DNA of 56,557 bases from Candidatus Thorarchaeota archaeon SMTZ1-45 (GCA_001563335.1 LRSL01000029.1:1-56557); one strand, 5' to 3'. Positions 22,775-40,879 are shown, counted from the first letter of the stretch. The notes: generated from the letters alone by a model not told the origin. Made by a program: numbers and translations.

Positions 22775-23011
22775 GCCCTTCTTTTATTTCTACCTTAGTT
22801 TCTTGCAGATTCCATACATATGTATGAGGATAATATGTTTTCTTTGAAAAAACTAGAGGAAGCTGGTGCATTAGCTCACTCATGCTTAGACTTATATACG
22901 TAAATAATAGCGCTTGGGGAAGCATCCTCGTTGGACTGTGATTTTACGTATCCTTTGGCCAAGCATATTCGCGGCCATATCTCAAGTGGATGTAAATAGG
23001 TGATTCAAAAA

Positions 23012-23956
23012 ATGGCAAGACCAGCACGACCCGCAATGAATAGTCGACAAGGAATGGTCGTTTGTTCTGTATGTGGAGGTAGTGATTTTTACCAAGACTT
23101 GACACGCGGCGAGCACATCTGTACGTCTTGTGGATGTGTGATGAACGAGAGAATCTTAGATACTGGACCTGAGTGGCGAGCATTCACTGCTGAAGAGCGT
23201 AATTCTAGAGCAAGGACAGGTTCACCAATGACATTGACAATGGCAGACAAGGGTCTTGCTACAACAATTGGCTGGAGCGACAGAGATGCTAATGGACGTG
23301 CAATTGCTGCAAACAGTCGTGCAGCAATCTATCGAATGCGAAAGTGGCAGATCAGAACTCTGGTTCATAGCTCTCAACATAGGAATCTCAGCATTGCTAT
23401 GAGTGAGATGGACAGACTCACTTCACAGCTTGGGGTTCCACAAGAAACTAAAGAAACCTCAGCTCTTATCTACCGAAAAGCTTTGAGCAGGCGTCTCGTT
23501 AGAGGTAGGAGCATTGAAGGCATGGTAGCAGCAACCATTTATCTCTCTTGTCGGATTCATAAGATCCCAAGACAACTTGATGAGATAGTAACTGAGGCAC
23601 GAGTCAATAGGAAGGAGCTTGGTCAATGTGTACGTCTAATCCTCCGCAATGTTGATGTCAAGGTGCCAATTCCATCAGCTAATGACCTAATGCCAAGAAT
23701 CTCAGCAGACCTTGGTCTTGATGGAAAAACAGTCCTGACTGCGATGGGCATCATTAATGATGCTCGGGAAAGGGGTATAACTGCAGGTAAAGACCCAGGT
23801 GGCCTTGCGGCGGCAGCACTCTATATCGCAGGCATCATCGAGGATGATCGTCGGACTCAAAGAGAGATTGCTGAGGCTTCAAATGTCACTGAGGTGACTG
23901 TTCGAAATAGGTACAAGGACCTGGCTAACAGTCTCCAGATTACAATCAAACCATAG
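23012..23956 (+). CDS. tfb: Transcription initiation factor IIB (TFB), paralog 1
   Basis: Zn ribbon CSVC..CTSC, GPEWRAF, GRSIE, GKDP..LAAAALY, TQREIA, VTEVTVRNRYK. Confidence 0.96.
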   Translation: MARPARPAMNSRQGMVVCSVCGGSDFYQDLTRGEHICTSCGCVMNERILDTGPEWRAFTAEERNSRARTGSPMTLTMADKGLATTIGWSDRDANGRAIAANSRAAIYRMRKWQIRTLVHSSQHRNLSIAMSEMDRLTSQLGVPQETKETSALIYRKALSRRLVRGRSIEGMVAATIYLSCRIHKIPRQLDEIVTEARVNRKELGQCVRLILRNVDVKVPIPSANDLMPRISADLGLDGKTVLTAMGIINDARERGITAGKDPGGLAAAALYIAGIIEDDRRTQREIAEASNVTEVTVRNRYKDLANSLQITIKP

Positions 23957-24041: not shown

Positions 24042-24791
24042 ATGACTCAGTTCATTCTAGCTCTATGTGGACTCCCAGCTTCTGGTAAATCAGCTCTCGC
24101 TGACGCGATTAAAAAAGCAATGAATTCCAACATAGAGATAGTAAGAACAGACGACTGGAGAAATAACTCGTATTATAAAAACTGGAAACCTGAGAGAGAA
24201 GGTCCAGTACGCGCAGCTGCGTTGGATAAGGTGACGGAATTAGTCATACAGGGCAAGAGTGTGATTCATGATGATACAAACTATTACACAAGTATGCGTC
24301 ACGAACTCTTCAAAATAGCCCTTGAAAACAGATGCGCTTTTGGAGTCATTCATGTGACTACACCTCTAGAAGTAGCACTCAAATGGAATAGTGAGCGACC
24401 TGATTCTAGATTTCCAAATGAAGTAATTGAAAGGATAAATGCCCGTTTTGATTTACCTGGAAGACGTTATCTCTGGGATAATTCTTTGATTGAAGTGGAT
24501 ATGTCGATCAATGAGACTGATGTCAAGGTAGCCAAGATCGTAGAGGATATTCAAAACCTCGAGTGTGTAAAGGAACCAGAACAAGTGTTGACGACAAGTA
24601 GTGAATTTGAAATGCTAGATGATGAAACGCGAAAATGTATTTCGAGGTTTCTTGAGGACAATCCGAGTCTACGTGGGAATAGGGAGGTGTCAAGAATTAG
24701 ACGAGCCGTTCTCAATCGTGCTACTCAAAGTATGATGTCAGGAAACGATGTATGTGAATTACTTCTTGAAGAGCTCAGCAAGCTGTTATGA
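24042..24791 (+). CDS. pstK: O-phosphoseryl-tRNA(Sec) kinase
   Basis: P-loop CGLPASGKS, DDTNYYTSMR and WD motif; adjacent to tRNA(Sec), SepSecS and SelB. Confidence 0.9.
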   Translation: MTQFILALCGLPASGKSALADAIKKAMNSNIEIVRTDDWRNNSYYKNWKPEREGPVRAAALDKVTELVIQGKSVIHDDTNYYTSMRHELFKIALENRCAFGVIHVTTPLEVALKWNSERPDSRFPNEVIERINARFDLPGRRYLWDNSLIEVDMSINETDVKVAKIVEDIQNLECVKEPEQVLTTSSEFEMLDDETRKCISRFLEDNPSLRGNREVSRIRRAVLNRATQSMMSGNDVCELLLEELSKLL

Positions 24792-24793
24792 GA

Positions 24794-24884
24794 TGGCGGC
24801 CTCCTAAGAGAATCGAACTCTCAACGCTTGCACGTTCATGGGTTTGAAGCCCACGGAACCAGACCACCGGTCCTGTAGGAGGCC
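24794..24884 (-). tRNA. selC: tRNA-Sec (anticodon UCA)
   Basis: Minus strand reads GGCCTCCTA CA GGACCGG TGGT CTGGTTC CGTGGG CTTCAAA CCCATG AACGT GCAA GCGTT G AGAG TTCGATT CTCT TAGGAGGCC G CCA: 9-bp acceptor stem, 7-bp D-stem, 6-bp anticodon stem, long variable arm, 4-bp T-stem, G73 discriminator and encoded CCA. Confidence 0.97.
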
Positions 24885-24927
24885 AAACACTGTTAGGAAT
24901 TCAAATATGAAACAATCAGCCCTGAAT

Positions 24928-25581
24928 CTAAATGTAACGGCTGATGATGTCTTGGGTTTCTTTCTTCCACTCAATGCTCTTTTTTGCAAGCTCTGCAGCA
25001 ATATTGCCTGGTAGAGTTTCTTCCCGAGGTAGAGACTCAATTCTTGAGAGCCATCCAGATGTTGTTAAGGTCAGAGAAGGTACGTTTGCTTCTCCCTCAG
25101 TGGCTTTGATTATCATTTCACGACCATGAGCAACTTGAATGTAAACGTCGCTGAGAGGTGCCTTGTTGAGAATTTCCCGCACTGTCTTATCCCAACAAGC
25201 TTTTGCAACAAGAGCACGCTTCAACTTAGCCTTGTCATTATCAGGTAGGGATTCGTATTTCGCTAAAGCATTGTTCAATGAGCCTGCAAGACCATCAAGA
25301 AAAGCGCCTAAAGCAACCTCATCAACACCTTCTGCTTCAACCCCAATGGTCGATTTGGCTCCGTTGACAGTAATGTTTACGAAGGCTTTTTCATTAGCAA
25401 TACGGAGTGAGAATTTCGCTGCACCATCAAAGACTTGACTCTCTGCTTCGGTATGTTCTTCCAAAATCACATTGGGTTTGGAAGCGACAGAGTACCAAGC
25501 GATTCGGAAAACTGTAGCTGAATCATCGGTAGTATAATTCAGAGTACGTGAAACCTTCACCATATCTTCTGAAGCATCCAA
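24928..25581 (-). CDS. Hypothetical protein within the Sec operon
   Basis: 217-aa ORF with a GGGAGGT RBS; 30 nt after sepsecS and 43 nt before tRNA-Sec on the same strand. Confidence 0.75.
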   Translation of the reverse strand: MDASEDMVKVSRTLNYTTDDSATVFRIAWYSVASKPNVILEEHTEAESQVFDGAAKFSLRIANEKAFVNITVNGAKSTIGVEAEGVDEVALGAFLDGLAGSLNNALAKYESLPDNDKAKLKRALVAKACWDKTVREILNKAPLSDVYIQVAHGREMIIKATEGEANVPSLTLTTSGWLSRIESLPREETLPGNIAAELAKKSIEWKKETQDIISRYI

Positions 25582-25611
25582 CTGTCTGACCTCCCTCTAG
25601 GGTCTCATAGT

Positions 25612-26931
25612 TTATTTACTGACTTCCTTATAGAGTTTGGTCGTAGCTGTTTCCACATCATTTCTCGATGCTCCAATGGCCGCATTCATCACCAAGTAGC
25701 TGTGCGGATAGTTGTCACATGATGAACCATACTCCCCTTTTCCAACAGCTCGTGGACCTGTCACACGCGCATTGTATAGTTTCGCCCCTATATCTTTTGC
25801 ATCGAGTTTATCCATTGTTATGGCAAAAGCCACAGGATTCCATACCGAGAGGACTCTTTGTCCAATTTTTTCTGCAATTTCATTCATTTTCTCATATAGG
25901 AGTTGCAAGTTCTCTTTTTGCTGTCGCTGGAGGTCCTTGTAGGGATTCAGTCCAAGCGATAGAAGAGCAGCAAGAGTTTGCACAATCGGAGCTGCTGATG
26001 CACGTCCTGCATAGCTTTCCATGATTTCCTCGATGAACTCTTTTGATGGAGACACTATGATTGATGCACCTACTGGGGAAAGGAAGTTCTTGTCACTACT
26101 CTGAACAACTGCGTCAACACGTCCAGCATCCACGGCAGACCGAATCTCGTTCATGATTTTTTCTGATTGAACACCATAGGCATTGTTGATGATTAGGGGA
26201 ACATCATTGTCTGAACAGGACTTGGCAATTTCTTTCACCGGGTCGGATTCTCTTGGTGGGAAGAATGTGGTTGTGGCAAGGATAGCGCATGATTCAGATT
26301 CTTTGATTTGATTATCTAGCTTCCCTAGGTCGACTTGGACTGAGTCCCCTTCAATGGTTGTTGGAACTACAATCTCCTCAAGTCCCACAAAGGCAATCGC
26401 ACGATGAGGAGATATGTGATCAATACGGGGAAAAAGCACTCGCTTGATTCCGCATTCTCTTCGTAGTGCACTCAGAACGAGAGCAATGCTCATTCCAGTT
26501 GACATGGGGGTTACAATACCCGATTTCATGTTGCTTAGACCAAGTTTCCGAATTGCGTCTAATGCTACACTGTTAGCAACTTGCTGCATCAAAGATGCTC
26601 CGGGTGCCTTTGGTTGTGGAGCAGTTAACTGACCACTTCTTCCTATACCATGATTGAAGCCTGCAGACAATCGACCAATAAAGGGAGAAGCTACTCTGGC
26701 TTCACGTTCACCAACTCTTGCAGCTTCAGGGTCTTTGTCGGTGTCAAGTGATGAGAGAAGTTGTATCATGATTTCAAGTTGAAGATCTGTAAGACCCTTT
26801 TCGGGAAAGAGCCGTCTGTTGAGAACATCTCTGACTGGACCCAATAGTGAGTCCACTGTTATTCTGCCACGTTTCAATATATTCTCAGGGATGTTCTTCT
26901 CGAGGATGCGATCAATCTCATCATTGTCCAA
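25612..26931 (-). CDS. spcS: O-phosphoseryl-tRNA(Sec):selenium transferase (SepSecS)
   Basis: RVGEREARV, HGIGRSG, QPKAPG, INNAYG, QSSDKNF (PLP Lys) and YAGRAS motifs. Confidence 0.96.
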   Translation of the reverse strand: MDNDEIDRILEKNIPENILKRGRITVDSLLGPVRDVLNRRLFPEKGLTDLQLEIMIQLLSSLDTDKDPEAARVGEREARVASPFIGRLSAGFNHGIGRSGQLTAPQPKAPGASLMQQVANSVALDAIRKLGLSNMKSGIVTPMSTGMSIALVLSALRRECGIKRVLFPRIDHISPHRAIAFVGLEEIVVPTTIEGDSVQVDLGKLDNQIKESESCAILATTTFFPPRESDPVKEIAKSCSDNDVPLIINNAYGVQSEKIMNEIRSAVDAGRVDAVVQSSDKNFLSPVGASIIVSPSKEFIEEIMESYAGRASAAPIVQTLAALLSLGLNPYKDLQRQQKENLQLLYEKMNEIAEKIGQRVLSVWNPVAFAITMDKLDAKDIGAKLYNARVTGPRAVGKGEYGSSCDNYPHSYLVMNAAIGASRNDVETATTKLYKEVSK

Positions 26932-28315
26932 ACTTATACTCCTCCTCTGTGAGCCGCTGATATGTTACTGTATCTGACTCTTTCACTGAGCCTTTGAATT
27001 CTACTGATACAACCCCTCGAGTACCAAAAGTCTGCTTAATAACCCCAACCACTCCACTAGCTGTAGTTACTTTAGAGCCTACTAATCTTTCTGCAACTTC
27101 TTTTTTGGATGCGAGCGATTCCACAAGTGCATCTTTCTCACGAACACGTTGGACACTACCAACCCTTGTTCGAGGTCTTGAGAGAATCATCTTCCCCGGA
27201 ATATCTACAACTTCACCAGACGCAACTATTCTCATCTGTGTTGGGGGTAAATCAGTACGAAGTAGTAACACCTTGGTCCCCTTTGTGAGGGCAATCGGTT
27301 TCTGAAGAAGAAGTGCTGCATTGAACTCCAGAGTTACAATCTTGTCTTGAACAACATTTGTATTATCAATAACTATGAGAGGTAATATCTGTCCCGTAAC
27401 GACTGGCATTCCAGCTGAAACACTGACCGTCATCCTCTTTGTGATGCGACCTTTATACAAGGGATTGATTTCTAGTCGAGCAAGAAATGCAGTAGCTCGA
27501 GTCATACTCAGAGGCGCACATAGATAATCGCCCCTTGTGATTTCAGTGTCATCAATCTCTGGTATATTGACACCAACCCGATCACCAGCACTTGCTGTTT
27601 CACGATTTTCACCAAAGGTCTGTATCGATCGAACTCTGCTTGTTTTACCAAGTGGTGCAATCTCGACAATATCACCAAGGCTTATTCTCCCTCTTTGAAT
27701 AGTACCTGTCACAACTGTGCCATGACCTTTGACAGGAAATGCATGATCGATAGGAACAGACAAAGGACTCTCTTTGTTTCTCATTCGAGGTGATAGAATT
27801 CGTAATAGGGTGGATCGGAGTCTATCTATGCCTTCCTCCTTTATTGCTGAAACGCTCACAATCTCAGCATCAGCAAAGGAAGTTTCAGCTAGAATCAATC
27901 GGATTTTCTCTTCCACATTCTTGAGCTTAGAGGATGCTACAATATCAGTCTTGGTCATGGCAACAAGTATCTTTTCCACACCCATTGACTGAAGGACAAT
28001 AAGATGTTCACCAGTTTGTACCTTTGGACCTTCGTCAGCAGCCACAACTAGAATAGCTGCATCAATTATATTCGCACCCGCAACGACACTTCGAATCAAG
28101 TCAGCATGTCCAGGAGCATCCACTAATGTCACCAGATAGTTATCAAGTATGAACATTGTGAACCCAAGATCAATGGTTATGCCACGTTTCTGTGCCTGAG
28201 GGTGCTTATCCAAACCAGCAGTGGATACTTTCTCACTGAGTACTTGTGCAAGAGCTGTCTTCCCATGATCTATATGACCCATGAGACCCACGTGAACAGG
28301 CACAAGATTGTCCAT
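26921..28315 (-). CDS. selB: Selenocysteine-specific elongation factor (archaeal SelB/eEFSec type)
   Basis: GHIDHGKT, GITIDLGF, DAPGHADL, IDHAFPVKGHGTVVTGT; short C-terminal domain IV (TFGTRG) and no bacterial winged helices. Confidence 0.95.
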   Translation of the reverse strand: MDNLVPVHVGLMGHIDHGKTALAQVLSEKVSTAGLDKHPQAQKRGITIDLGFTMFILDNYLVTLVDAPGHADLIRSVVAGANIIDAAILVVAADEGPKVQTGEHLIVLQSMGVEKILVAMTKTDIVASSKLKNVEEKIRLILAETSFADAEIVSVSAIKEEGIDRLRSTLLRILSPRMRNKESPLSVPIDHAFPVKGHGTVVTGTIQRGRISLGDIVEIAPLGKTSRVRSIQTFGENRETASAGDRVGVNIPEIDDTEITRGDYLCAPLSMTRATAFLARLEINPLYKGRITKRMTVSVSAGMPVVTGQILPLIVIDNTNVVQDKIVTLEFNAALLLQKPIALTKGTKVLLLRTDLPPTQMRIVASGEVVDIPGKMILSRPRTRVGSVQRVREKDALVESLASKKEVAERLVGSKVTTASGVVGVIKQTFGTRGVVSVEFKGSVKESDTVTYQRLTEEEYKFGQ

Positions 28316-30668: not shown

Positions 30669-31667
30669 TCAGGTATTAACATTCTTTGGTGTGAGAAAGC
30701 CACCCTTTGAAAAGTCAAAAAATATGCGTTCATCTTTGCCAAGTGTCAATCTGACAGCTTTGGAGTCGTCAGCCTGTCCAAAGAAAGTCGTGGAAAGGCC
30801 ATGTGCCTGTGCAATCCGTTTCACGTCCGGGAGATTACTTTCAGCTGTGGCTACAAGAAAACCTAGTGAGATAAACATCCGAACCCAGTCCTCTAATGGA
30901 ATGTCAGAGGGTCGAGACGAGTCAAGGGAATCTAAGTTCAAAGTGCCACCACATCCAGAGTATTCTAACATCATACCGGCTGTCCCTATCACTCCTGCAA
31001 CAGAAACATCCTTCGCAGCTGTCAATAACTTTTCACTGGCAAGTTCATTCATTACTGAGAGTCTGCGAACAACATCCTCAGATGTTCGACCTGTGACTGA
31101 GTCCCATCCCAGTTTGTAGCTTTCACCTCTCTGGCCAACTTTGTCAAACAATAGAACCAACACATTACCTGACTCTGCTCCACCTGCAGTGAGAAGATTC
31201 GTTTTCATGACTCTGCCTGTGGCTGAGCCAACAATATACGTGGAGCTTGAACTAGGATTTGTATGCCCTCGGACAATGGGAACTCGAAATATCTGAGACC
31301 CGGTGATTAGCCCATCGAGTAATGCCTCTCCAATTTTAGGATCGGAATATGACAAAGCTACAGCAAATGAGGTTGGCGTTCCCCCTGCAGCGTAGATATC
31401 CATCATGTTAGCAAGCACAGCATTGAATCCTGCTGCTCGAGGGTAGTTTACGCAGAGGTCTTCAACAATCCCATCGGTAGTTAAGAGTACGTATTCATCA
31501 GACTCTGTTCCGATTGCAGCAGAGTCCTCGCCAAGACTGTGAGGAGTATTACCCTTGAAGGATTCTAACCGAAGCCTATCAATTATAGAAGGAAGCACGA
31601 ATTTCCGTGAGATTCCATCAAAGCTCAAAAGGAGCTTTACAATCTCATCGAGACGGTTCAAGTCCAA
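30669..31667 (-). CDS. PurM/AIR-synthase-related protein (methanogenesis-marker-2/sll0787-like); not canonical SelD
   Basis: GEDSAAI, TTDGI, NMMDIYAAGG, GHT and KDVSVAG motifs; lacks the SelD N-terminal C/U-G-x-K. Confidence 0.8.
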   Translation of the reverse strand: MDLNRLDEIVKLLLSFDGISRKFVLPSIIDRLRLESFKGNTPHSLGEDSAAIGTESDEYVLLTTDGIVEDLCVNYPRAAGFNAVLANMMDIYAAGGTPTSFAVALSYSDPKIGEALLDGLITGSQIFRVPIVRGHTNPSSSSTYIVGSATGRVMKTNLLTAGGAESGNVLVLLFDKVGQRGESYKLGWDSVTGRTSEDVVRRLSVMNELASEKLLTAAKDVSVAGVIGTAGMMLEYSGCGGTLNLDSLDSSRPSDIPLEDWVRMFISLGFLVATAESNLPDVKRIAQAHGLSTTFFGQADDSKAVRLTLGKDERIFFDFSKGGFLTPKNVNT

Positions 31668-33092: not shown

Positions 33093-33410
33093 TCATGTTA
33101 GAGTGCCCAGTCGACTGCTCACTTCATCAAGCTGAGCTTTTGTTGTGACTATTGAATCTGCACCATATGTCGGTATTACTTTCAATTCCTCTATAAGAAG
33201 AGCTATTGCTTTATTGGAATCAATCTCCTTCTTATCAAGAGAGGCATCGGGAAAAGTAAGCGATGCTTCTATCCATTTCGTTTTTGTGTCATCAGAGGGA
33301 AATAGACAGTAGATATAGTCGTCATTGCTGCAGATAAACGAGGGAGTGTTCTCCCAAGCTTGTGCCAACAGTATGCCAAAAGCCTTTGCATTTTCAGCCT
33401 TATCAGCCAT
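33093..33410 (-). CDS. Hypothetical protein
   Basis: About 105-aa ORF with a GAGGT RBS, in a co-oriented gene string. Confidence 0.7.
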   Translation of the reverse strand: MADKAENAKAFGILLAQAWENTPSFICSNDDYIYCLFPSDDTKTKWIEASLTFPDASLDKKEIDSNKAIALLIEELKVIPTYGADSIVTTKAQLDEVSSRLGTLT

Positions 33411-33493
33411 CAAGATTACCTCGGGCCAGATGTTGTAACGGACAACGTATTTGCGAACTTAATTGTTTTGCTCATGGATTGAAGCGAAAAAAA

Positions 33494-34057
33494 CTATGGT
33501 CTATGCCAAACGAAGGAATAGTAAGCGACCTCAGCATTTTCTTTGACTGTGGCAATGATGAATTTCTTCCTCACACTTGTTGCTAATCTCCCAGCCCGAA
33601 CAATATCGAGTGGAACTACACCTTTCCTCTGGGGGATAACATGGACAAGAAAGGGTGCATGGTCTTTTCCAGGTCCAAATTCATAGACTGCAAAATCAGT
33701 ACCAAACTTTAATCCGGGACGTACAACATACCCATGTTCACGTAACTGAGAATATACAACGAAACGGTCTTTGAACTCATCAGACCATTCCGATCCTAGT
33801 TTTAGAAGATCATCAACACTTAGGATTTTATCTTCATCATGTCGGCGAACATTGAGCCGTTTTTGTTGAGTGAGATAGACACATTCAATCAACGATAACT
33901 CAAGTGGTTTGTCGAAAACTGAAGACTTCGGTTTTCTAATTCCTACAGGTTGGCCAAAGTAACCCTCTTCATAAAGTTGCATGCCATAATCAGGATCCCA
34001 AACGATTCCTCTGTCACCTACAAGTCTAGCTTCTGCAACAAAGGAAGGTTTTTCCAA
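33494..34057 (-). CDS. endA: tRNA-splicing endonuclease
   Basis: LELSLIECVYL, GLKFGTDFAVY (Tyr), DHAPFLV (His) and GRLATSVRKK (Lys). Confidence 0.93.
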   Translation of the reverse strand: MEKPSFVAEARLVGDRGIVWDPDYGMQLYEEGYFGQPVGIRKPKSSVFDKPLELSLIECVYLTQQKRLNVRRHDEDKILSVDDLLKLGSEWSDEFKDRFVVYSQLREHGYVVRPGLKFGTDFAVYEFGPGKDHAPFLVHVIPQRKGVVPLDIVRAGRLATSVRKKFIIATVKENAEVAYYSFVWHRP

Positions 34058-34075
34058 TTCATAGCACCGACTATA

Positions 34076-34747
34076 TCAAGTATTGAGTGTGAGTGAGAGC
34101 GTTCGAATCACCAGTGCTGCATCTTCGCTGAAATTCGCTATATCCTCTAGCATGTTTATGAAATCTCGGAATCGGAGCAGTACAGGAAGTGGAATATCTA
34201 AAGGATACAATAAAGTTTGAATCTTTCTTTGTACCACGTCTATTTGCTTCTCTAGTTTACAAATCTCCTCAGCACGTTTCATGGATTCTTCCATGTTAAT
34301 TGATAGAAATCGTACTGCTTCACGTTGTGCAGAGAGCTGGGAGCTCATCAGCTTTCCTAGCTCTGCTATATTCTCTTTCAACTCACCATCAGGTGTCCAA
34401 TGTTCGACAACTGCTGCTAGATGATAGCATGCAATTTCTGCACCATCTACTGATTTGTCATTGTAGAACACAAGCTTGAGAAGATCTTCACGCTGCATCA
34501 AAGAGCTGGCGTTCGCCAGTTCATTGAGTATGGTACGCTTCAAAGCATCACCTTTTTCTTCTAGAGCCGTGATTTTCTCAAGTTCATCAGTTGCAATGGA
34601 CTTTTTACCTTCAAGCCAATCGGTGATTGCATTGACTACTATCTTATTTGCTGATACTGCCACACGAAAATGCTCATCCAGCATTTGTGTGATATTTCCC
34701 AGCTCGGAGCTGATGAACCTTCCATTATCGAGAACCATGATGGACAC
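34076..34747 (-). CDS. DUF47/PhoU-like phosphate transport regulator
   Basis: LEEKGDALKR, REDLLKL, LEKQIDVV and LEDIANFSEDAA helical repeats. Confidence 0.8.
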   Translation of the reverse strand: MSIMVLDNGRFISSELGNITQMLDEHFRVAVSANKIVVNAITDWLEGKKSIATDELEKITALEEKGDALKRTILNELANASSLMQREDLLKLVFYNDKSVDGAEIACYHLAAVVEHWTPDGELKENIAELGKLMSSQLSAQREAVRFLSINMEESMKRAEEICKLEKQIDVVQRKIQTLLYPLDIPLPVLLRFRDFINMLEDIANFSEDAALVIRTLSLTLNT

Positions 34748-34820
34748 CTATATTGAGCTGAGTCGATTAGAGTAGCTTTTTAATTCTTCTGGACCTTGAG
34801 CAAAATAGGAGAAAGGAATA

Positions 34821-35621
34821 GTGGAGCTCTGGCAGCTTATCGTTGCTCTCATTCAGGGACTGGTGGAATGGCTTCCAATAAGCAGTGAAGGACAGGTTGT
34901 TCTGTTCTTGTATAATTTTTCACCCGTTTCCACAGAAGAGATCCTCTCTCTTGTGGTTTGGCTTCATCTCGGAACTACTTTAGCAGTAATAGTGAGGTAT
35001 CCAAGAGTAATTTTTGAAATATTGAGTTTCAGAGATAGGAGATTATTAAGACTCCTTCTTCTAGCTACAGGAAGTACCGCTCTTACTGCTTTACCTCTTT
35101 ACTACTTCCTGAAAAGCAGTTTGACGCCTATGCATGGTGAACTTTTGAACGTATTAGTAGGAGTACTGCTATTGGTAACAGCTATTGTCTTGTATCTTCC
35201 AACTAGACAAAGCAAGGAAAAAAATGTGGACATTGGACGAGAGGTTGAGAATACAGAGGCAGTCACAACTGGACTAGTTCAAGGTTTGGCAGTACTGCCT
35301 GGTTTAAGTAGATCAGGTGTGACCATTTCCGCGCTTCTGATACAGAAAATAGACAAAGAAACTGCAATGAAGTTCAGTTTCCTAATGAGTGCCCCTGCAG
35401 TCATCGCGATTCTTTTCTTGGAGATTTTATCAGGAACTACGATTCCATCAGGGATTAACACATTCGATTTCTTTGTGATAGAAGGAATCGTATTTGGGAC
35501 GGGGCTCATATCAATGGAGTTCCTATTGAGGTTAGCAAAAAGAGTCAGTTTCTGGAAATTATGCCTTGCTCTAGCAGTTGTGGCAATCGTGTTTGGCATC
35601 CCTACATTGATACCAATATAG
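34821..35621 (+). CDS. uppP: Undecaprenyl-diphosphate phosphatase (BacA family)
   Basis: QGLVEWLPISSEG, LHLGT, PGLSRSG and FSFLMS motifs. Confidence 0.9.
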   Translation: MELWQLIVALIQGLVEWLPISSEGQVVLFLYNFSPVSTEEILSLVVWLHLGTTLAVIVRYPRVIFEILSFRDRRLLRLLLLATGSTALTALPLYYFLKSSLTPMHGELLNVLVGVLLLVTAIVLYLPTRQSKEKNVDIGREVENTEAVTTGLVQGLAVLPGLSRSGVTISALLIQKIDKETAMKFSFLMSAPAVIAILFLEILSGTTIPSGINTFDFFVIEGIVFGTGLISMEFLLRLAKRVSFWKLCLALAVVAIVFGIPTLIPI

Positions 35622-39910: not shown

Positions 39911-40879
39911 CTAACTGAGACTCATTGAATCGATTCCAAGTTTCTTAACAATTTCCTTGTATCGATTCCTAACAGTCACCTCAGTGACTCTGGCAACCTC
40001 AGCGATTTCACGTTGTGTCCTGCGTTCATCAAGCATAATAGATGCAACATAGATAGCTGCTGCCGCTAGACCTAATGGATCTCGACCAATGGTGAGACCG
40101 ATATCTCTACTTCTCTGTAGAATCTCCACAGTTCTCAATTGCACTGGACTTGACAGAGAGAGCTGAGAGGCAAAACGGGATATATAATCGATTGGATTGC
40201 TGAGAGGTATCTTGATAGCAAGACTTCGTAAGAGTAATCGATAGCATTGACCTAGTTTCTTCTTATCAACCCTTGAAGCATCAGCAACCTCATCCAAAGG
40301 ACGAGGTTTCTTTCTAATTCTGCATGCAGCATAAAGCGTTGCAGCAACCATGGCTTCAATGGAACGTCCTCTCACAAGTTTTTGAAGGATTGATTTTCGA
40401 TACAATAGCGCTGCTAATTCACGGATTGGGCTTGGAATCCCTAGCTGGGAGGATAGACGTTCGAGTTCTGACATTGCTTGCGCCAAGTTCCTATCCATGG
40501 AACTGTGAACACGCGATCGTATCTGCCATTTTCTCAGTCGATAGATTTCTGATCTTCGTGTTGGACTGAGCTTCTTTCCTGAGGTGTCTCGATCTCTCCA
40601 ATCAATCACGGTCGACAAACCCTTGTCGTGGACTGTATATCTTATTGGTGCACCTACACGGCTACGCGCATCACTCTCTTCTGAGCTGAACGCTCGCCAT
40701 TCCGCACCAGTGTCAATCCTATGATCAGATAGAACAAGCCCACATCCACCACAGACACGCTCACCTCGAGTCATGTCCTCAACAACAGATATGGAACCAC
40801 ACTCAGAACAAGCAATTGGCTCAACGGCCGCATCAGAAACGGCACCCTTTCTATCAGAAGCACCACGCGTACGGTCCAA
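39911..40879 (-). CDS. tfb: Transcription initiation factor IIB (TFB), paralog 2
   Basis: CSEC..CGGC, EWRAF, HDKGLST, GRSIE, GRDP, VTEVTVRNRYKE. Confidence 0.96.
   Translation of the reverse strand: MDRTRGASDRKGAVSDAAVEPIACSECGSISVVEDMTRGERVCGGCGLVLSDHRIDTGAEWRAFSSEESDARSRVGAPIRYTVHDKGLSTVIDWRDRDTSGKKLSPTRRSEIYRLRKWQIRSRVHSSMDRNLAQAMSELERLSSQLGIPSPIRELAALLYRKSILQKLVRGRSIEAMVAATLYAACRIRKKPRPLDEVADASRVDKKKLGQCYRLLLRSLAIKIPLSNPIDYISRFASQLSLSSPVQLRTVEILQRSRDIGLTIGRDPLGLAAAAIYVASIMLDERRTQREIAEVARVTEVTVRNRYKEIVKKLGIDSMSLS

Follow-up and report, generated by a model that had tools for sequence, protein, structure and literature searches.

What does the gene that lies between SepSecS and tRNA-Sec in Candidatus Thorarchaeota archaeon SMTZ1-45 do? 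The question is raised by a stretch of 56,557 nucleotides (GCA_001563335.1 LRSL01000029.1:1-56557, in the following called the window), in which genes of the selenocysteine (Sec) system are arranged in the order selB, SepSecS, X, tRNA-Sec, X being the gene under study. An earlier note on this DNA had proposed X as a candidate for a missing component of the Sec system, such as an adaptor binding SECIS (selenocysteine insertion sequence) elements or tRNA-Sec, a partner of SepSecS or a selenium carrier. Our analysis leads to a narrower reading, to which we give a probability of about 0.45: X would act beside SepSecS, to which it would be coupled, as an accessory adaptor between proteins; it would also have a role independent of Sec and would not be a SECIS-binding factor.

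The description of the locus in the earlier note, i.e. the 217 amino acid open reading frame, its ribosome binding site, the spacings and the gene order, was confirmed, and the strand (minus) is supplied here (Table 1). The genes selB and SepSecS overlap by 11 nucleotides, the SepSecS reading frame ends at 25612, leaving a gap of 30 nucleotides to X, and a GGAGG motif precedes the start codon of X, which together argue for one operon. tRNA-Sec lies downstream of X on the same strand after a gap of 43 nucleotides. An alternative in-frame ATG at codon 7 would give rise to a 211 amino acid form, as found in some database relatives.

Family, predicted fold and remote homology of X

X is a member of the NCBIfam family NF045535 (Sel_Asgard, "putative selenocysteine system protein"), which it matches with 215.8 bits (cut-off 132, E 5.1e-64), residues 19-214 aligning with positions 3-195 of the 195 profile positions and thus over the full length. 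In Pfam, no family was found for X at E <= 1. The earlier statement that X contains no recognisable motif therefore holds for Pfam and does not hold for NCBIfam. Database searches returned 291 homologous proteins at E <= 1e-3 (best E 1e-125), and a survey of 400 genomes from the phylum to which the window belongs, sorted into coded families (f numbers), detected X in 281 of them, compared with none of 14 control genomes. Because of these two sets of matches X is, as judged from its relatives, a genuine gene and not a chance reading frame. The family is small: a search of 1.84 billion proteins gave only 59 representative clusters at E <= 1e-3, and the source names seen all carry Asgard labels; on this basis the family is taken to be restricted to Asgard archaea.

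Neither the gene nor its linkage to Sec genes is new. Relatives with 61-77% identity to X, which carry Thorarchaeota labels, bear the NCBI name "putative selenocysteine system protein", and a sentence in PMC11227280 (ISME J 2024) mentions an Asgard-exclusive hypothetical protein often encoded near secS, efSec and pstk. This description fits X exactly; the example given in that part of the paper, MBD3157761.1, was not found among the cluster members looked up. The designation of X as an uncharacterised gene is thus not correct in the sense of uncatalogued, and what is added here are the fold, the remote homology, the linkage counts and the exceptions. The phrase "selenocysteine system protein" was not found in the literature searched, and a link between Sel_Asgard and the appendage and Vps28 C-terminal modules described below was absent from it as well; the word selenocysteine does not occur in the text of PMC10936438, the supplementary tables of which may list the family. 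The name of NF045535 rests on gene neighbourhood only. A position beside Sec genes is true of X in the window and, as found here, untrue of those members that occur in Sec-negative genomes.

The structure of X was modelled with AlphaFold2 from a 20-sequence alignment, resulting in a confident model (predicted local distance difference test score, pLDDT, 93.6; predicted template modelling score, pTM, 0.89). It contains strands at residues 8-15, 39-47, 51-61, 64-73 and 78-85 with a helix at 21-33 within the N-terminal half, followed by helices at 88-111, 114-138, 143-160, 169-182 and 192-214, so that both the beta-rich N-terminal and the helical C-terminal half anticipated in the earlier note are seen. 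The N-terminal domain is predicted to adopt a TBP-like or helix-grip fold, such as occurs in adaptin appendages as their platform. Fold comparison (VIA) matched it to 1vjh (Z 11.2) and to the AP-2 beta2 appendage 3h1z (Z 9.5), Bet v1-like and other helix-grip proteins such as 1vjh scoring at least as high as 3h1z; Foldseek aligned it with the AP-4 beta appendage 2mj7 with a probability of 1.00 over 98 columns and an E value of 2.9e-2, which is weaker than the E <= 0.001 line. The C-terminal domain matched the yeast Vps28 C-terminal domain (2j9u_A) with Z 11.2 and a root-mean-square deviation of 2.2 over 93 of 94 residues; this score is tied with those of unrelated bundles and lies in a range common for helical bundles.

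The model of X contains neither an Ig-like beta-sandwich, the beta-alpha-beta4-alpha unit being the only unit of this half, nor the steadiness-box helical hairpin of the Vps28 N-terminus. A sequence search of the PDB with the X profile yielded only designed proteins (E >= 0.05), and a protein-atlas feature search with X gave scores of only 0.77-0.78, below the threshold. A resemblance to the NRD-HEPN part of RnlA (Foldseek E 3e-3) was set aside, as the TM score of 0.25 is low and no conserved R-x4-6-H motif is present in the family alignment A1.

Sequence comparison goes further than the fold comparison. The profile derived from A1, which includes the Sec-negative orthologues, was searched against the 1.84 billion proteins and matches the C-terminal ~200 residues of proteins of 576-806 amino acids (P0164, E 3.7e-10; P0170, 1.6e-7; P0177, 2.4e-4); NF045535 matches the same C-terminal regions. 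The Pfam model of VPS28, PF03997, scores above its cut-off of 24.5 bits in P0164 (29.4 bits) and in the stand-alone protein P0165 (26.6 bits), in a region corresponding to X residues ~117-213. P0165 is the exception among 26 representatives of the X family, the other 25 having no Pfam family; among the matches listed, a PF03997 hit is precomputed for 52 of 120 homologues of the P0164 region. In hhalign comparisons against 20 Asgard Vps28 proteins, the multidomain modules reached a probability of 94.6% (E 6.8e-8) and X combined with these modules 75% (E 2.5e-5), the last two to three helices being in register at the C-termini of X and Vps28. Because of this sequence evidence via P0164 and P0165 and the profile comparison, the link of X to Vps28 is probably more than a likeness in shape.

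A model of P0164 (pLDDT 84.7) comprises Zn ribbons, five winged helices, an Ig-like sandwich, a beta-alpha-beta4-alpha unit and a helical bundle. Its Ig-like domain and the TBP region homologous to X jointly match the appendages of beta2-adaptin, alpha-adaptin and COPI-gamma (1e42, 1w80, 1pzd; Foldseek E 1.6e-9 to 6e-9). A passage of PMC10936438 describes Asgard proteins in which the Vps28 C-terminal domain is joined to an adaptin appendage (Ig plus TBP), Ig-like and HTH/PCI domains. Since the multidomain homologues belong to the class described there, X is best described, from sequence and model comparisons, as the stand-alone TBP-plus-Vps28-C module of Asgard multidomain proteins. In the ~790 amino acid "PCI domain-containing" proteins of Asgard archaea the last ~200 residues (TBP domain and bundle) are homologous to X, whereas the Zn ribbons, the five UFL1/DDRGK1-like winged helices and the Ig-like domain are missing from X, which is stand-alone and linked to SepSecS. 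Adaptin and COPI appendages likewise consist of an Ig-like sandwich followed by a TBP-like platform; P0164 has both, X only the platform-type unit.

[quoted passage not shown] X is not an orthologue of Vps28, since it lacks the steadiness box and a direct Pfam hit and since a separate Vps28-like steadiness-box protein is encoded in the genome; nor does X reside in the ESCRT gene cluster. In a tree of 45 rows X forms its own clade (support 91/79), the multidomain modules being the outgroup (97/94). The fold and the remote homology of X point to known domains of another kind, namely an adaptin-appendage-type TBP domain and a Vps28 C-terminal bundle, an outcome that the earlier note had named as speaking against a Sec component.

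Furthermore, the sequence of X was inspected for features bearing on RNA or selenium binding. Pfam returned no RNA-binding family at E <= 1, be it L7Ae, RRM or another, and NCBIfam gave no L7Ae-type hit. The isoelectric point ranges from 5.1 to 5.9 within the window's family and from 4.8 to 9.3 outside it. Conserved cysteines are absent from the X family, the single cysteine of X in the window not being conserved, and no rhodanese, NifS or SelD-like family was detected with Pfam or NCBIfam. Five columns are invariant (F25, D131, R154, E155 and K206), the last four of which lie in the bundle. The lack of an RNA-binding family, the acidic isoelectric point and the lack of a conserved cysteine argue against X being a binder of SECIS elements or tRNA-Sec or a selenium carrier, two of the roles considered earlier.

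Linkage to SepSecS and distribution among Asgard genomes

Of the X-centred loci compared, 34 in number and taken from the families f1, f22, f21, f16 and f4, 32 have the SepSecS reading frame adjoining X; of the two exceptions, one lies at a contig end and the other has no SepSecS within 1.5 kb. X also adjoins SepSecS in f17, so that adjacency is seen in six families. The remainder of the cluster is more variable. In the window's family, 14 of the 17 scanned loci have tRNA-Sec after X; the order is tRNA-Sec, SepSecS, X with selB not adjacent in f22, and it is selB, SepSecS, X in f16 and f4. Between f1 and f22 the identity of X is only 14-18%, that of SepSecS 47-49%. The persistence of the SepSecS-X pair through rearrangement of the Sec cluster and divergence of X argues for a functional coupling of the two genes.

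SepSecS was detected in 243 of the 400 genomes. X and SepSecS are both present in eight families (f1, f4, f15, f16, f17, f21, f22, f23), and about sixteen families have neither. As this family-level co-occurrence is confounded by kinship, no statistics were drawn from it. In five families X occurs without SepSecS: f14 (19 of 19 genomes with X vs 0 of 19 with SepSecS), f29 (4/4 vs 0/4), f6 (3/4 vs 0/4), f28 (2/3 vs 0/3) and f2 (1/1 vs 0/1). Sec-negativity was checked further in one genome of each of these families (five genomes, 91-98% complete). In none of the five was PSTK found (best score 47.6 bits vs 128.8 bits for the window's gene), domain III of aSelB was absent from all five, and none contained a credible tRNA-Sec; a hit of the tRNA-Sec model above threshold in G299 was rejected because it is a tRNA-Leu according to ARAGORN.

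The Sec-negative copies of X are orthologues, which are interspersed among the Sec-positive ones in the 45-row tree: f2 is sister to f1 (100/99), f14 groups with f1 and f2 (87/91), and f28, f6 and f29 group with f4, f21 and f22 (89/86). They retain the invariant residues. The f2 copy is in a syntenic place, adjoining TFIIB, an AstE-like gene and the gene of a small membrane protein, while the Sec genes are gone. The idea that X tracks Sep-tRNA-dependent pathways in general was rejected, as in f14 X is present in 19 of 19 genomes and SepSecS as well as SepCysS in 0 of 19, and as SepCysS is found in 0 of 85 f1 genomes.

A run of the genes for UppP, DUF47, the tRNA-splicing endonuclease (EndA) and a 106 amino acid protein is found near X both in the window, at most ~8 kb away, and in the Sec-negative genomes G100 and G304 (L037, L039), at most ~4 kb away. 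This shared run suggests an old conserved neighbourhood in which the Sec genes are placed or from which they have disappeared. TFIIB, of which the window contains two paralogues, also adjoins X in the Sec-negative genome G311 and is no more than 4 kb from X in f4.

Surrounding genes and ESCRT genes

The coordinates of X, its domains and the other features are compiled in Table 1. The score of the PSTK-like kinase with TIGR03574 (128.8 bits) is below the cut-off of that model (290.5). The kinase gene on the plus strand ends 2 nucleotides from the 3' end of tRNA-Sec on the minus strand (24791-24794), a very tight convergence. The A/T-rich box upstream of tRNA-Sec is possibly an archaeal TATA-like promoter element belonging to the tRNA gene.

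Table 1. Features of the X locus and related genes; positions refer to the window unless a contig or locus is named.
Feature	Position	Strand	Basis or remark
Gene X, 217 aa, TTG start, TAG stop	24928..25581	minus	open reading frame list and translation
X N-terminal alpha/beta domain, residues 8-111, beta-alpha-beta4-alpha	25249..25560	minus	AlphaFold2 model
X C-terminal four-helix bundle, residues 112-217, Vps28 C-terminal-domain-like	24931..25248	minus	AlphaFold2 model
Shine-Dalgarno-like GGAGG, 8 nt 5' of the TTG of X	25590..25594	minus	sequence inspection
SepSecS (O-phosphoseryl-tRNA(Sec) selenium transferase), directly upstream of X	25612..26931	minus	PF05889 E 1.9e-120; TIGR03531 468.8 bits
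selB, archaeal/eukaryote-type SelB (EFSec)	26921..28315	minus	TIGR00475 303 bits; PF21440 aSelB_III; PF21131 eEFSec_4th
tRNA-Sec, anticodon TCA	24794..24884	minus	ARAGORN
PSTK-like kinase, convergent with tRNA-Sec	24042..24791	plus	TIGR03574 E 2.3e-37, 128.8 bits; PF08433 KTI12 E 1.1e-34
A/T-rich box TTTCATATTT, 19-28 nt 5' of tRNA-Sec	24903..24912	minus	sequence inspection
TFIIB paralogue adjoining the Sec cluster	23000-23956	plus	
TFIIB paralogue	39914-40879	minus	
AIR-synthase-family gene	30672-31667	minus	TIGR04049 (sll0787 family) 212 bits, TIGR03267 (methanogenesis marker 2) 208 bits, both below cut-off
UppP, DUF47, EndA and 106-aa genes	33096-35618		
Reduced X-family protein, f18/f19	L086 2779-3168	minus	bundle only; genome has SepSecS
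Reduced X-family protein, f18/f19	L087 3254-3685	minus	bundle only; genome has SepSecS
Reduced X-family protein, f18/f19	G128:C6:155513-155833		bundle only; genome has SepSecS
selD of the window's genome (G000)	C75:33576-34385 (L088)	minus	TIGR00476 211 bits; one in-frame TGA
Steadiness-box/EAP30 fusion gene (G000)	C13:8478-9242 (L084 6479-7243)	plus	
297-aa coiled-coil protein (G000)	C107:26733-27623 (L083 7734-8624)	minus	X profile E 4e-5, residues 170-296
AIR-synthase-family gene, f16	L080 10674-11666		374 bits, cut-off 365
AIR-synthase-family gene, f4	L081 7604-8596		371 bits
Vps28, f22	L079 5032-5757	minus	
X, f22	L079 12144-12821	minus	
Multidomain protein, weak NF045535 match	G189:C1:1457717-1458295 (L046)		
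Multidomain protein, weak NF045535 match	G143:C1:842941-843267 (L047)		

An AIR-synthase-family gene is a second uncharacterised gene that recurs beside Sec genes. It is present in the window, directly 3' of X in f16, and after X and a gene for a 105 amino acid protein in f4. In the five Sec-negative, X-positive genomes it is absent from three and unlinked in two. The gene was considered as a SelD partnering X and rejected, as the selD model gives only 37.7 bits. The true selD of the window's genome is located on another contig; its product is probably itself a selenoprotein, because the gene contains one in-frame TGA.

The ESCRT cluster of the window's genome is found on contig C13 and not on the contig of X. 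There, a fusion gene combining a Vps28-like steadiness-box region with a winged-helix part of the EAP30/Vps22 type adjoins Vps25, Vps4 and Snf7. Pfam VPS28 matches are found in 0 of 34 genomes of the window's family vs 33 of 33 in f22. A further Vps28-C-like paralogue is the C-terminal bundle of a 297 amino acid coiled-coil protein encoded on contig C107, next to a D-aminoacyl-tRNA deacylase gene. The idea of X as the missing Vps28 C-terminal domain of the window's ESCRT system was rejected, as it finds no support in gene location: the ESCRT cluster is on C13, and this separate protein with a related bundle is encoded on C107. In ~20 f22 genomes the contig of the SepSecS-X pair also carries a canonical Vps28 gene, at a distance of 6-17 kb (mostly 6-11 kb) and on the same strand as X in all but one genome (G161). 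In locus L079 six unrelated genes lie between the two, including those for an RNA cyclase, a SAM hydroxide adenosyltransferase and a NUDIX fusion.

Two checked genomes of f21 and f22 contain a second, weak NF045535 match, which corresponds to multidomain proteins akin to P0164, P0177 and P0170 (~580-810 amino acids); the same probably holds for most of the other genomes. The winged helices of the multidomain proteins match the human UFL1-DDRGK1 ribosome UFMylation scaffold (Foldseek with the P0164 model, E 6e-11).

Possible roles of X

In the reading that we favour, X would be a vertically inherited, Asgard-specific two-domain adaptor, both domains of which would be protein-protein interaction modules. 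In Sec-using lineages it would be translated from the SepSecS operon and would dock SepSecS, or an assembly containing SepSecS, to another partner as an accessory scaffold; X itself would bind neither SECIS elements nor tRNA-Sec and would carry no selenium. It would also have a Sec-independent role, proposed here as the reason why X was kept after Sec loss, and Sec decoding could run without it. That X is physically coupled to SepSecS and serves as a scaffold is inferred here, whereas the gene, its family, the fold, the remote homology, the linkage and the phyletic pattern are what the analysis shows. A function of X as a partner of SepSecS, as suggested in the earlier note, is plausible. An analogous situation is described in a passage of PMC9499178, according to which SepCysE bridges the SepRS-SepCysS transsulfursome in methanogens. 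Like X, SepCysE is a small protein encoded beside a tRNA-dependent pyridoxal phosphate enzyme, and it acts as a scaffold. The analogy is functional only, as no sequence or family relation between SepCysE and X was found with Pfam and NCBIfam and as X does not track SepCysS.

Co-folding of X with SepSecS (alignments A1 and A3) gave scores of 0.00 and 0.00 in a run without controls, which speak neither for nor against binding. Several observations weigh against the view of X as an accessory adaptor of SepSecS. Some Sec-positive families have no linked full-length X: in f15, X is 2.3 kb away from SepSecS and on the opposite strand, in f18 and f19 the X family is represented only by a 130-144 amino acid C-terminal-bundle protein that is unlinked to SepSecS, and in f30 SepSecS is present in 5 of 5 genomes and X in 0 of 5, two of these genomes being 100% complete and one having been searched again at E <= 0.01. 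The synteny of X and SepSecS, which the earlier note had suggested to check, thus holds in six families and fails only in a minority, f15, f18, f19 and f30, where X is not linked or not present. With regard to the ESCRT-type ancestry, PF03997 does not match X itself at E <= 1, the hhalign comparison of X alone with Asgard Vps28 is weak (probability 54-68%, E 1.3e-4 to 4.9e-5), and the fold score with 2j9u_A is shared with unrelated bundles. Finally, the retention of X in five Sec-negative families could mean that X has no role in Sec metabolism at all and that its adjacency to SepSecS is inherited operon structure.

The last point leads to an explanation that we consider doubtful, albeit one to be taken seriously, namely that X is an ESCRT- or trafficking-type adaptor without any Sec role, the ancestral order after SepSecS being kept because X depends on the promoter of the operon. 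It would account for the homology that X shows to the Vps28-C/appendage module found in Asgard multidomain proteins, for intact orthologues with all invariant residues in Sec-negative families, for the gene order around UppP, DUF47, EndA and the 106 amino acid gene that the window shares with the Sec-negative G100 and G304, and for the canonical Vps28 gene close to X in f22. However, the adjacency of SepSecS and X has outlasted rearrangement of the Sec cluster at an X identity of 14-18%, a persistence not usually seen with neutral synteny; in the window's genome, the ESCRT cluster occupies another contig, and the genes separating X from Vps28 in f22 are unrelated. It is also conceivable, if unlikely, that X is the Asgard-specific missing link of the Sec pathway, a SepSecS-bound adaptor built from the appendage-platform and Vps28-C module that also occurs in ESCRT-associated Asgard proteins. 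It would link the synthesis of Sec-tRNA with SelB or some other machinery of the cell, so that protein-protein contacts would stand in for eukaryotic factors of the SBP2/SECp43 type, and the Sec-negative copies would keep a second, older role.

A core component of Sec decoding, an adaptor that would bind SECIS elements or tRNA-Sec, recruit SelB and thereby correspond in function to SBP2 or SECp43, is what the position of X between SepSecS and tRNA-Sec might lead one to expect, as might its restriction to a phylum with eukaryote-like SECIS elements and without SBP2 and the co-occurrence of X and Sec genes at the level of families. That no archaeal SBP2 equivalent is established, as stated in the earlier note, is in accordance with the parts of reviews consulted. 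We nevertheless regard this possibility as quite improbable. The eukaryotic SECIS binder SBP2 contains an L7Ae-type domain, whereas X has no such domain, possesses another fold and is acidic in the window's family; any likeness lies in the hypothesised role only. SECp43 carries RRM domains. No RRM family was detected in X at E <= 1, and both domains of X have protein-interaction folds. X is furthermore dispensable in some Sec-positive families, being absent from f30 and reduced and unlinked in f18 and f19, and it occurs in five families without SepSecS, the tested genomes of which also lack PSTK, aSelB domain III and tRNA-Sec. Taken together, the presence of X in Sec-negative families and its absence from the Sec-positive f30 argue that X functions without Sec and that Sec can be used without X. 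Of the three findings named in the earlier note as speaking against its proposal, two were obtained (homologues common in Sec-negative genomes, namely in f14, f29, f6, f28 and f2, and a fold matching another family), and they weaken the strong form of the proposal, according to which X is a core Sec factor so far missing; in favour of the proposal, X is conserved, restricted to Asgard archaea and tightly linked to SepSecS in many Sec-positive lineages. The idea that X carries selenium or delivers it to SepSecS or SelD draws on the position beside SepSecS only and appears very improbable in view of the missing cysteine, the missing rhodanese, NifS and SelD-like families and the occurrence of X in Sec-negative lineages.

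Overall, Asgard archaea have eukaryote-like SECIS elements but no SBP2, and the open question of how these elements are read bears on the origin of the eukaryotic Sec system. As the only conserved uncharacterised gene inside the Asgard Sec clusters, X is an obvious candidate, which has already been flagged by others. The results presented here narrow this down to a protein-binding adaptor of probable ESCRT-adaptor ancestry that is neither essential for the use of Sec nor exclusive to it. As a consequence, attention shifts from RNA-binding assays to the identification of the partners of X.

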